Position numbers and translations under genes: made by a program. The notes beneath the pieces are model-generated. The model worked only from the letters and a program-made list of their open reading frames with translations, had not been told where the DNA came from and searched no databases. From a virus (taxonomy: Duplodnaviria; Heunggongvirae; Uroviricota; Caudoviricetes), in IMG/VR virus record IMGVR_UViG_2529293241_000014: a stretch of DNA of 20,195 nucleotides; one strand, 5' to 3'. Positions 453 through 2,183 of the stretch are shown piece by piece. How positions within the stretch are numbered: the stretch's first letter is position 1; every line of letters starts with the position of its first letter.

Positions 453-2183
453 TCAGGCTACCTCAACTCTCTTTTCAATAGGGTCAAGGTTTTTCATCCC
501 GCCAAGATCTTCTGCCACCTGTTTGAGCATTGACCTTGTTGATGGCGCATCAATTTTTGCACCTGCAGGCATCGCCTTTTCAACATTGCGATAAAGCTGG
601 TCGCTTCGTTTCATCAGCGCAGACATTCTTCCATTGACCGTATCAATAAACTTGTCGCTCATACCAAGAGCATCTTTTGCACCGGAAACGCGATCAATTA
701 TCTCACCCGCGCCCTGTGCTAGCTGCCTGATTGCTTCATTTTCCTGCACCTGTAGAGCAGAACCCGCACGGGACTTGATTGCTTGCTCAACTGCCTTGTA
801 TTGCTCGTTCCCGGAAAAGTGTGAAGGGAGTAATGAATCAACATTAAGCCTTTCAGCAGACTCCAGAACTTCAGCCTGAGGATTGATATCTAGTTCATCA
901 AGCGATGAAGCGAGATTTGGCCTTTTTTGTGCTGCTACTGTGCGAACGACTTCCTCTGGGTTCTTCGTCGCAGGCGTCATTGGTACACCTTGTGCTACTC
1001 TTGCCTCTGCGGCATGAACCGCAGGATTTGTTGCTGCAGCGGCATCACCGGAGAATGGTGATGTTTCTGTTGGCGCAGTGGTCGCTCTCTGTGCAGATGT
1101 TTTATTGCCACTAATTATATTTGATGCACCACGAACACCACGGGTAACGCCATTTATCAGGCCATGCGTAGCAATGCTAAGTCCGGCATTAATAGCGGCA
1201 TTTTCGGCAAAATCACCCCGTTGATTCGCCGCGTCAGCGAGAGAACCAATGACCATGTTTCCAGCTACACCTGCTCCAGGAACAAGATAACCGCCTATTG
1301 ACTCTCCAGCTTGCGCGTAGGGGTCTGTCGGTCTGTCTACTGGACGATAAACATCATCCAATACTTTTGGCCCCCCAAGCCCCTGACTGATTGCATTAAT
1401 CAGACTTGCGCCACCCTGCAATACGTCAAATGGTATGTTTACCAGACCACGACCAGCCTGTTCTGCAATTTGCCCTGCACTTTGACCACCAGTGAGCCAA
1501 TCGCCAGCTTGTTGCATCAATGATGGTTCTTCCCGTGTTGGTGCATTATTGGCCTGATTAACTGTTTGTTGCTGAACAGGTTTCGGTGCGACAGAACTTA
1601 CGGGTTGAGGTGGCTGCTGACTGGCTGCCTGCTGCTCAATCTGAGCAAATGGATTATTTGGGTCTGACTGCACACCTGATGCCGATACTTGTTCGGATGA
1701 CTGTACTTCCAGTTGTGCAAACGGGTTGTTAGGGTCTTGCTGAGGATGTACCTTTGCAGAGGTGGCGCGCTGTTCGACTGTTGAGTCTGTCACCGGGTCA
1801 CCAGCCCATTGAGCAAAGCGATCATCAACGTAACCGCGGCCTTCAGGTCCTGGCGTATATTCACCACGCTTTGCCTTCATAACGTTGCCGGGACCGTCGT
1901 GATAAGCCTGAAGAGAGTCACGCCAGTTACCAAACTGCTGGTACATCTTTGCCAGATAGCGCGCGCCAGCGTCAGCCTGATATTCGGGGTTTTGCATTTG
2001 CTCATCGGTATAACCCATATCACGCCATGTCCCAGGCATGACCTGAGTCAATCCTACAGCCCCGGCGGAGCTTACTGCGGCAGGGTTGTAAGAAGACTCC
2101 TTGGCACCCAGTGCAGTCATCAACCCTTCTGGCACACCGTAACGTGCGCCAGCCTGCTCTAACAAATCACGGTAATTAGCCAT
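453..2183 (-). CDS. Virion internal/ejection protein in the P22 gp16 position, with an N-terminal soluble lytic transglycosylase (SLT) domain
   Basis: 576-aa ORF, last gene of the structural operon, directly abutting the gp20-like gene. The N-terminus carries family-1 lytic transglycosylase motifs ([27 protein letters not shown]; AYHDGPGN). The central region is Q/P-rich with a tandem DPNNPFAQ repeat. Confidence 0.8.

Follow-up and report, generated by a model that had tools for sequence, protein, structure and literature searches.

A P22-like gene 16 relic with an N-terminal lytic transglycosylase domain, truncated by IS600 in a Shigella flexneri prophage

Results

Organization of the locus

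The window analysed here (the whole 20,195-nucleotide stretch of IMG/VR record IMGVR_UViG_2529293241_000014) carries a degraded P22-like prophage of Shigella flexneri, in which homologues of gp14 (DUF2824), gp7 (P22_gp7) and gp20 (Inj_translocase) are followed by the open reading frame (ORF) considered in this report; the start codon of this ORF abuts the stop codon of the gene-20 homologue. This gp14-gp7-gp20 synteny upholds the placement of the ORF at the gp16 position that had been made in a sequence-only reading of the same DNA. The features of the locus and their coordinates are listed in Table 1.

Table 1. Features of the truncated gene 16 locus and of selected neighbouring genes (window coordinates).
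Feature	Position	Strand	Basis
Second IS3-family element, inside the IS600 fragment	1..378	minus	Pfam HTH_Tnp_1; 99.5% match
IS600 left end (TGAGGTAGCCTGAG...), truncating element	381..465	minus	100% match to annotated E. coli loci
Truncated gene-16 homologue, 576 codons, ATG start	453..2183	minus	ORF call
Rest of native gp16 body, aa 354-573	466..1124	minus	phrog_770, phrog_6704, hhalign
Conserved gp16 module, aa 221-353	1125..1523	minus	BLASTP E=1e-67
Q/P-rich linker, aa 128-220	1524..1802	minus	pLDDT 33-55, low-confidence prediction
Motif copy 2, DPNNPFAQIE, aa 174-183	1635..1664	minus	sequence
Motif copy 1, DPNNPFAQLE, aa 150-159	1707..1736	minus	sequence
SLT/GH23-type lytic transglycosylase domain, aa 1-127	1803..2183	minus	Pfam, PDB phmmer, pLDDT, Foldseek
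Predicted catalytic Glu29 codon, in K-E-S	2097..2099	minus	aligned to Slt70 E478
Gene-20 homologue, 443 aa	2184..3515	minus	Pfam Inj_translocase
gp4 homologue	6941-7510		
Holin, endolysin, Rz cassette	15520-17107		

The terminase gene of this prophage is cut by IS911 at 13120/13121, so that the N-terminus of TerL is gone; IS911 insertions and what looks like an inversion disrupt the upstream part of the late operon, and a tailspike gene is missing from the window. Because TerL is cut and the tailspike gene is lacking, this copy is very probably inert, and we regard the Shigella gene as very probably a fixed, non-functional relic. In the assembly collection 1,949 blocks list the identical 576-aa sequence; the longest contig that carries it is 10-20 kb long in 1,496 of these blocks, and 62 have contigs of more than 1 Mb. 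Its named relatives lie on S. flexneri draft contigs of 12.6 kb, the length of the IS600-to-IS911 interval.

The reading frame ends inside IS600

Codons 1-573 of the ORF are native gene 16 sequence, and its last three codons (E574-V575-A576) and TGA stop are supplied by IS600. The protein gp13 of phage Sf101 (911 aa) is 98.8% identical to the ORF across residues 1-573, and the match to intact gene-16 relatives breaks off at nucleotide 466, with IS sequence from 465 down; the E. coli loci matched by the latter bear the label "IS3-like element IS600 family transposase". The second element, whose orfA occupies positions 1-327 and which matches "IS3 family transposase" loci, is presumably IS629/IS1203-like, judged by its terminal sequence. 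Intact relatives are 797-935 aa long, and the window copy stops at codon 573 of the 911 in Sf101 gp13, so that the first 63% of the protein is kept; an intact reading frame is found in E. coli F1005 and the full-length 911-aa gene in Sf101. The length of 576 aa, which had been taken as that of the natural product, is therefore an artefact of the IS600 insertion. The ORF had also been described as the last gene of the virion operon. In intact relatives, however, a tailspike gene with a P22 head-binding domain comes next, and the ORF appears to be last because insertion sequences have replaced everything downstream of it.

When the window and four loci from complete genomes, the latter together with 10-kb flanks, were searched by tblastn with Sf101 gp13 as query, residues 1-573 alone were recovered, and the last 338 codons were not found within 10 kb downstream in any of the four complete genomes, where psiF-phoA-ddlA come after the insertion sequences. 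This result rules out a simple IS insertion with the remainder of the gene downstream, and favours insertion plus deletion or rearrangement. There are no frameshifts or internal stops in the 573 native codons, so residual expression of the truncated product is compatible with the sequence alone. Judged from its junction, the ORF is a pseudogene remnant, a truncated member of the gp16 family.

The N-terminal lytic transglycosylase domain

The family-1 SLT domain that had been recognized at the N-terminus is strongly supported. Profile PF01464 matches residues 7-110 (nucleotides 1854-2165) with 86.9 bits (cut-off 21.3; E=9.3e-25), and in a phmmer comparison with the PDB (E=1.7e-11) K28-E29-S30 pairs with Q477-E478-S479 of Slt70, in which E478 is the catalytic Glu; a profile search and an alignment of this residue had been named as tests, and the profile match was found and the Glu is retained. 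The SLT motifs of the ORF are KES(29), GLTQ(44-47) and AYHDGPG(93-99), and E29, S30, G44, L45, Q47, Y94, G97 and G99 do not vary among the 32 SLT-bearing homologues of our alignment (A1). Family-1 motifs II (G-L-M-Q) and III (A-Y-N-x-G) are recognizable with M to T and N to H as tolerated variants, and 12 of the 32 homologues have N at the variant position of motif III. An AlphaFold model, structure prediction having been suggested earlier as a check, gives a lytic transglycosylase (LT) fold with pLDDT >90 over residues 11-110. Its best Foldseek matches are Slt, Slt70, LtgA, MltE, MltF, MltD and MltC, all with probability 1.00, and T7 gp16; Slt, Slt70 and LtgA superpose with an rmsd of 2.3-4.5 Å across about 141-156 columns. 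The predicted structure has the all-alpha architecture of the goose-lysozyme-like fold. By homology, then, the N-terminus of the ORF is a family-1 lytic transglycosylase (GH23) domain, and catalysis of this family's non-hydrolytic kind, which yields 1,6-anhydroMurNAc, would be predicted.

The family 1A enzymes Slt70 of E. coli and Slt of P. aeruginosa match best in both sequence and structure (residues 4-102), with the catalytic Glu, GLxQ and AYxxG in register. These two enzymes are exported, serve housekeeping functions and carry large superhelical U/L domains, whereas the ORF has a lone catalytic domain at the N-terminus of a phage protein; direct reading of the sequence revealed no signal peptide or lipobox at that end.

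The linker and its twin motif

The Q/P-rich linker contains both previously noticed copies of DPNNPFAQ(L/I)E, spaced 24 residues apart. We estimate that an exact 8-mer repeat in 576 aa would be expected by chance with a frequency of ~1e-5, and six of the eight synonymous third positions differ between the DNAs of the two copies. The twin motifs and their 24-residue spacing are kept in copies from Escherichia, Cronobacter, Klebsiella and Shimwellia, whereas the intervening sequence diverges. The twin motif thus appears to be selectively conserved, a minor new lead. The AlphaFold model is informative for residues 1-127 and, to a moderate degree, for residues 437-575, while the linker and residues 183-407 mostly have pLDDT <55; because of the low pLDDT, we leave uninterpreted the short helices predicted over the twin motifs.

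The gp16 body and its exchangeable N-terminal cassettes

The C-terminal region, previously described as of unclear function, is by homology the body of a P22-type gp16. The family profile aligns with P22 gp16 residues 51-601 over about 525 columns (hhalign probability 100%, E=7e-64), phrog_770 matches with E=2e-107, PF26808 (Phage_P22_gp16) is a precomputed match for the ORF, and BLASTP gives 81% identity over 137 aa between residues 221-353 and residues 53-189 of P22 gp16. The native body ends at the IS junction at about position 330 of the 609 in P22 gp16, so the window copy is without the equivalent of residues ~330-609, and it is in this absent part that the equivalents of G532 and P546, the gp16 residues altered in P22 SieA-escape mutants (PMC10883804), would lie. 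Gly/Ala-rich, moderately hydrophobic segments within the conserved gp16 module give Kyte-Doolittle peaks at 247-265 and 295-319 (maximum 1.2); classical transmembrane helices were not found in the Sf101 protein, and since these peaks are weak we make no claim of a transmembrane helix. A PDB search with residues 201-911 returned nothing at E<0.68, and thus no solved structure for the gp16 body.

P22 gp16 (609 aa; PF26808; phrog_770) occupies the same genomic slot and has a homologous body, but it and the gp16 proteins of Sf6, HK620 and CUS-3 begin with a short non-enzymatic N-terminus of 50-80 aa, as opposed to the ~200-aa SLT cassette present here, which ends near aa 203. No SLT match was found in any of these four proteins, which agrees with, and extends to three further phages, the earlier statement that P22 gp16 has no such enzymatic domain. 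The cassette is exchangeable: one gp16 body (94-98% identity) carries three alternative N-terminal cassettes, the non-SLT proteins P0002 and P0012 have the same body as the ORF downstream of the cassette, N-termini of the MAKAWKD or MKVTANG type occur on this body in P0008 and P0012, and the SLT cassette is joined to bodies in proteins of 797, 813, 875, 911 and 927-935 aa.

The SLT form of gp16 is present in at least seven isolated P22-like phages and in 70 of 5,426 complete E. coli genomes (about 1.3%); relatives of Sf101 gp13 with this cassette include those of phages APC_JM3.2, Huey, Dewey, IME10 and phiKp_30. The description of the ORF as a different domain architecture in the gp16 slot therefore holds in comparison with P22, but the arrangement is not unusual, being frequent in P22-like prophages and already annotated. 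The SLT cassette occurs together with a specific C-terminal half and tail of gp20 (...DFINRYGYLPSLGQ) in all five phage and prophage genomes compared and in 66 of 67 E. coli genomes. This apparent co-inheritance is a minor new lead, for which physical linkage alone could be enough.

Discussion

We propose, with a probability of about 0.88, that the ORF is the relic of a P22-like gene-16 ejection protein of the Sf101 gp13 type, truncated by IS600, and that the intact protein has the two-part design and entry function described here. Sf101 gp13 (AII27837.1, "transglycosylase", 911 aa) lies in the same slot after gene 20 and has both the SLT cassette and the twin motif; genes of its type are intact in viable phages (797-911 aa), whereas the window copy stops inside IS600. 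The intact protein would consist of a swappable ~200-aa cassette, made up of the family-1 LT domain and the flexible Q/P-rich linker with its twin motifs, and a full-length gp16 body whose homologous part in P22 gp16 is residues 51-601. In an intact phage such a gp16 would be packaged in the capsid alongside gp7 and gp20 and expelled through the tail after adsorption; its N-terminal domain would then cut MurNAc-GlcNAc bonds locally, allowing the trans-periplasmic conduit to pass the murein layer, and the gp16 body would engage the inner membrane, so that tasks are split as they are in T7 gp16. In S. flexneri IS600 inserted after codon 573, and an IS-mediated rearrangement would next have taken out the final 338 codons along with the tailspike gene and anything farther on. 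Virion location and use at entry are what we infer for the intact relatives, from homology to P22 gp16 and analogy to T7 gp16. The earlier suggestion of a role during DNA delivery can thus be kept for those relatives only; in a degraded prophage such a role is unlikely for this copy. Our searches of the literature found no experiments on any SLT-type P22-like gp16, and the Sf101, Kapi1 and E212 papers contain no discussion of the SLT domain.

T7 gp16 (PDB 7EYB/7K5C, "Peptidoglycan transglycosylase gp16") is the textbook case of an ejected internal protein that bears a wall-cutting domain. This internal core protein leaves ahead of the DNA and likewise has an N-terminal LT domain, an extended segment and a large body, which engages or crosses the inner membrane. 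The LT domains are weakly similar in sequence and alike in fold (phmmer, 7eyb_I residues 11-126, E=7.9e-4; Foldseek, 7eyb_I and 9jyy_I), but a PDB search with residues 201-911 detected no similarity to T7 gp16 outside this domain. At 1,318 aa T7 gp16 is also larger, and it builds a core stack, which the P22-like E-proteins are reported not to do (PMC8954989). We thus see the SLT-type gp16 as a probable functional parallel to T7 gp16, outside that family. The LT domain of T7 gp16 helps genome internalisation when the peptidoglycan is highly cross-linked (PMC8954989). In P22 the virion-associated muralytic activity has been assigned to gp4 (PMC5380687), an unrelated protein at the neck, without the SLT fold, that is part of the tail adaptor and is not ejected; given this assignment and the gp4 homologue encoded here, the SLT domain could be redundant.

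Several other readings were weighed against this one. From its open, ATG-initiated frame, translational coupling to gene 20 and intact SLT motifs one might argue that the 576-aa ORF encodes the whole of a working ejection protein and that the prophage is live, but this reading is refuted by the IS junction: the relatives of 911 and 797 aa lose their homology to the ORF precisely at the terminus of IS600, beyond which the codons and the stop belong to the IS. The absence of the part equivalent to P22 gp16 ~330-609, which includes G532/P546 (PMC10883804), the truncation of TerL and the missing tailspike gene also stand against it, and we give it next to no weight. Co-option of the truncated protein by S. 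flexneri, in a role such as that of an auxiliary murein hydrolase, would account for its persistence in intact form in thousands of isolates, and could be read into the identity of the sequence in 1,949 blocks and the freedom of its 573 codons from inactivating mutations. However, given the clonality and recent origin of S. flexneri lineages, such identity is expected without selection; as the protein has neither a signal peptide nor a lipobox, it is hard to see how it would reach the periplasm other than by way of a virion; and the upstream part of the late operon is broken by the IS911 insertions and apparent inversion. We therefore think co-option very unlikely.

The remaining two readings concern where and when the domain acts. 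The Sf101 orthologue is labelled "lytic tail fiber protein" in RefSeq NC_027398 and phrog_21143, and SLT domains of many phages sit in tail proteins or tape measures, which would make the protein an external fiber or tail-tip lysin rather than an internal ejection protein. Its body is nonetheless homologous to that of an ejection protein over the ~525 columns aligned with P22 gp16, its gene lies in the gp7-gp20-gp16 slot, and intact relatives have a separate tailspike gene with a P22 head-binding domain; the label seems to be automatic, and an external position is in our judgement very improbable. Lytic transglycosylases do serve as endolysins in some lambdoid phages, and the domain might by that token work at lysis and release, at the end of infection. 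Yet this prophage already encodes a holin, endolysin and Rz cassette, and the domain, which has no export signal, is part of an ejection protein. The precedent of T7 gp16 favours entry as well (PMC8954989), and we attach hardly any credence to a role in lysis.

As a discovery the SLT-type gp16 matters little, although its description here has some corrective value. The architecture is common, and is publicly annotated as "lytic transglycosylase domain-containing protein"; NCBI lists close variants of the truncated form (98-99% identical) under the name [quoted passage not shown], and the intact Sf101 orthologue was deposited in 2014 as "transglycosylase". Casjens and Thuman-Commike in 2011 and Casjens and Grose in 2016 reportedly catalogued gp16 sequence types. 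The occurrence of the same gp16 body with and without the enzyme offers a natural, isogenic-style comparison for the contribution of a virion-borne transglycosylase. Annotators should note that reference resources have taken up the IS-truncated Shigella form: a PHROG profile of 576 positions matches it end to end, and PGAP labels an intact E. coli gene "missing C-terminus".

A tentative thought on the DPxNPFAQ(L/I)E pair is that it might be a short linear docking motif that binds the gp20 tail or a periplasmic host protein and so places the transglycosylase on the conduit. As part of the same speculative reading, the twin motifs might be the P22-like counterpart of the "molecular tape" of T7 gp16 (residues 157-228), which cements the gp15 tube. 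DPNNPF also recalls, as we take it, the TolB-box region of colicins (...ENNPW...), a likeness on which we do not rely.

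Truncation of the SLT-bearing gene 16 homologue by insertion sequences

The ORF analyzed here is a pseudogene left by IS600 truncation of a widespread, already annotated fusion of a lytic transglycosylase (SLT) domain to gp16. On the minus strand the window has the gene order of a P22-like late operon (table below), and the gp16 position proposed for the ORF is therefore correct; its start codon lies directly after the stop codon of the gene 20 homologue. The tail needle in this operon has an Sf6-type C-terminal knob, unlike the P22 needle.

Coordinates of features in the window
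Feature	Position (nt)	Strand	Remarks
Second IS3-family element	378-1		interrupts the IS600 fragment; orfA at 1-327
IS600 left end	465-381		85 bp
SLT-gp16 ORF	453-2183	-	576-aa translation
DPNNPFAQ motif copy 2	1635-1664		aa 174-183
DPNNPFAQ motif copy 1	1707-1736		aa 150-159
gp20/Inj_translocase	2184-3515	-	SLT-gp16 ORF comes next
gp7	3525-4217	-	
gp14/DUF2824	4220-4678	-	
Tail needle (gp26 homologue)	4675-5523	-	282 aa; Pfam Phage_tail_NK, E=2e-116
gp10	5523-6941	-	
gp4 adaptor	6941-7510	-	
Coat	7694-8989	-	
Scaffold	8989-9900	-	
Portal	9914-12079	-	
TerL fragment	12080-13120	-	
IS911, left copy	13121-14369		1,249 bp; cuts TerL at 13120/13121
Holin	15520-15735	+	
Endolysin	16110-16643	+	
Rz	16799-17107	+	
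IS911, right copy	17324-18572		1,249 bp; inverted relative to left copy, 100% identical
IS2-like element	18922-20195		301-aa InsD-type ORF and partial orfA; runs off right window end

The 576 aa given in the sequence-only reading are not the natural length of the protein. In tblastn searches of phage genomes, Sf101 (KJ832078) and APC_JM3.2 match with 98–99% identity only over residues 1–573, and in Sf101 the gene has 2,736 nt (911 aa). By megablast against complete E. coli genomes the window aligns only from nt 466 upward; the E. coli F1005 frame runs on ...EKRVFRAVNPGKNG... to a terminal ...SDDNQK, and the window frame ends ...EKRVEVA, its DNA from 465 downward being TGAGGTAGCCTGAGTTTAACGGACAC.... 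The first 85 bp of the latter match, at 100% identity, E. coli loci whose annotation is 'IS3-like element IS600 family transposase'. Because homology breaks at 466 and IS DNA lies beyond, the gene was cut by IS600, and another IS, which from its terminal sequence we presume is probably IS629/IS1203-like, later inserted into IS600.

The exact 576-aa sequence is listed in 1,949 assembly-collection blocks, of which 62 have contigs >1 Mb, and close variants named '[Shigella flexneri]' lie on draft contigs of 12.64–12.71 kb, which is the unique window interval from IS600 (465) to IS911 (13121). Beyond the insertion sequences, four complete genomes have psiF, phoA, iraP, ddlA or their remnants rather than phage DNA, and tblastn found no trace of residues 574–911 within 10 kb, so the locus has lost the 3′ third of the gene together with all beyond it; in relatives the tailspike gene lies beyond gene 16. 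The profile phrog_21143 ('lytic tail fiber protein') has 576 positions and matches the window protein end to end (1–576), and in E. coli F1005 (locus L002, 3000–4718), where the gene is intact with 911 codons, PGAP calls it 'incomplete; missing C-terminus' and ends it exactly at codon 573. It seems that reference resources have taken up the IS-truncated Shigella form.

The left IS911 copy also removed the N-terminal part of TerL, and the two copies bracket 2,954 bp carrying the lysis cassette, whose orientation is opposite to that of the other late genes, which suggests IS911-mediated inversion of this segment. A 136-aa ORF (14355–14765) whose start lies within the end of the left copy has no PHROG match. 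We take the rightmost element to be IS2 from its InsD sequence; four different IS families occur in these 20 kb, as is typical of Shigella. The prophage is a wreck and the ORF a relic, and we assign no function to the window copy.

A transglycosylase domain fused to gp16

A profile search matched Pfam SLT (PF01464) to residues 7–110 with 86.9 bits (E=9.3e-25; cut-off 21.3 bits). The top phmmer match in the PDB is Slt70 (E=1.7e-11), in which Q477-E478-S479 aligns with K28-E29-S30 of the ORF, E29 being the counterpart of the Slt70 catalytic glutamate E478; T7 gp16 (7eyb_I) matches weakly over residues 11–126 (E=7.9e-4). In an alignment of 46 homologues, E29, S30, G44, L45, Q47, Y94, G97 and G99 are kept in all 32 that bear the domain. 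The AlphaFold model built from this alignment has pLDDT >90 at residues 11–110, and Foldseek matches it to Slt, Slt70, LtgA, MltE, MltF, MltD and MltC, to the T7 core protein gp16 in the PDB, and in BFVD to many phage proteins named 'internal virion protein' or 'LT_GEWL'. With a profile match present and the catalytic glutamate retained, the proposed SLT domain is confirmed. The P22, Sf6, HK620 and CUS-3 gp16 proteins give no SLT match, and the contrast drawn with a P22 gp16 that has no enzymatic domain is therefore also correct.

The region following the linker, previously described as of unclear function, is a homologue of P22 gp16. BLASTP aligns residues 221–353 to P22 gp16 residues 53–189 (81% identity) and finds nothing else significant outside them. 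The P22 gp16 family phrog_770 ('DNA transfer protein') spans window residues 108–566 plus the missing Sf101 C-terminus, PF26808 (Phage_P22_gp16) is a precomputed Pfam match of the ORF, and an hhalign comparison of the family alignment with P22 gp16 yields 100% probability (E=7e-64) over 525 columns and P22 residues 51–601. When intact, the protein thus combines an SLT cassette with a whole gp16. The window copy ends at about P22 position 330 and, compared with P22 gp16, lacks the part holding G532 and P546, where P22 SieA-escape mutants carry substitutions (PMC10883804). The sequence-only reading is thus borne out in its observations and in part of its interpretation.

Of 5,426 complete E. coli genomes, 70 carry the SLT cassette DNA (nt 1575–2183), 67 of them with at least 99% identity; among the records listed, these genes are annotated 'lytic transglycosylase domain-containing protein', and one cluster of 797-aa proteins has 1,295 member sequences. 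The Sf101 GenBank record (2014) names its gene 'transglycosylase' and the Sf101 paper makes no comment on it; our literature search found no experimental work on the SLT-gp16 form. The virion-associated muralytic activity of P22 has been assigned to gp4 (PMC5380687), a homologue of which is also present in the window.

Domain identity, conserved catalytic residues, the genomic slot and homology to gp16 are established for the ORF. By analogy with the established behavior of the P22 E-proteins and T7 gp16 (PMC8954989, PMC10883804), we infer that in intact phages the protein would be packaged and then expelled on adsorption, whereupon its N-terminal domain would open the murein locally and the gp16 body would complete the conduit at the inner membrane.

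Exchange of N-terminal cassettes

One gp16 body (94–98% identity) carries three different N-termini among the homologues: the P22 type (MKVTANGKTF..., proteins P0002 and P0012), the Sf6/HK620/CUS-3 type (MAKAWKDVIASPQYQ..., P0008 and P0011), and the SLT cassette. A 27-residue stretch shared with P0012 places the joint near residue 203. The SLT cassette is fused to bodies of 797, 813, 875, 911 and 927–935 aa, the 797-codon version being present, unannotated, in IME10. Serratia, Klebsiella, Pluralibacter and metagenomic relatives have two other SLT cassette types (MAGPWEKYQ..., MDV.LP.G...), which are without DPNNPF but bear other Pro-aromatic motifs in their Q-rich linkers.

Two modest leads emerge, a gp20-tail/gp16-cassette module and a conserved twin motif. 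Across all 11 genomes compared (the window and loci L001, L003, L004, L007-L010 and L015-L017), the type of gp20 C-terminal tail covaries with the gp16 cassette: ...SKSGI(K/Q)FTVE accompanies the MKVTANG cassette (P22, L015), ...(N/G)FSSLWGD the MAKAWKD cassette (Sf6, HK620, CUS-3, L016), and ...DFINRYGYLPSLGQ the SLT cassette (window, Sf101, Huey, IME10, L017). A block of the gp20 C-terminal half (window 2184–2840) and the SLT cassette (1575–2183) is nearly whole in 66 E. coli genomes, versus 67 with a complete cassette. The boundary between genes 20 and 16 is not itself a mosaic joint; the joints fall within the two genes. This co-inheritance may be mere linkage, or it may stem from a gp16-gp20 compatibility requirement, such as has been reported genetically (PMC10883804).

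A conserved twin motif in the linker

The tandem DPNNPFAQ(L/I)E repeat noted earlier is indeed present, both copies lying in a Q/P-rich stretch that AlphaFold predicts with low confidence. Both copies occur with equal spacing in every homologue with the window-type SLT cassette, including diverged Cronobacter, Klebsiella and Shimwellia homologues (e.g., QQDPDNPFAQIEAQ and QDDPSNPFAQIEAQ), and the residues between them vary. The DNAs of the two DPNNPFAQ copies differ at six of eight synonymous third positions, and the duplication is therefore old and kept at the peptide level rather than a product of recent slippage; these codon differences indicate long-term selection on the peptide, not recent DNA duplication. 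DPNNPFAQ behaves like a putative short linear motif, and the linker motifs may dock the protein to gp20.

Among gp16 homologues, the two SLT cassette types that lack DPNNPF (P0027-P0043, P0054-P0057) have two GPWxKYQ copies at the N-terminus, with ELxQLxQQxxQPWxQ following the SLT domain, and the non-enzymatic MAKAWKD/MAKPWRE cassettes also begin with a Pro/Ala-Trp motif; Pro-aromatic motifs thus recur in Q-rich segments near the junction.
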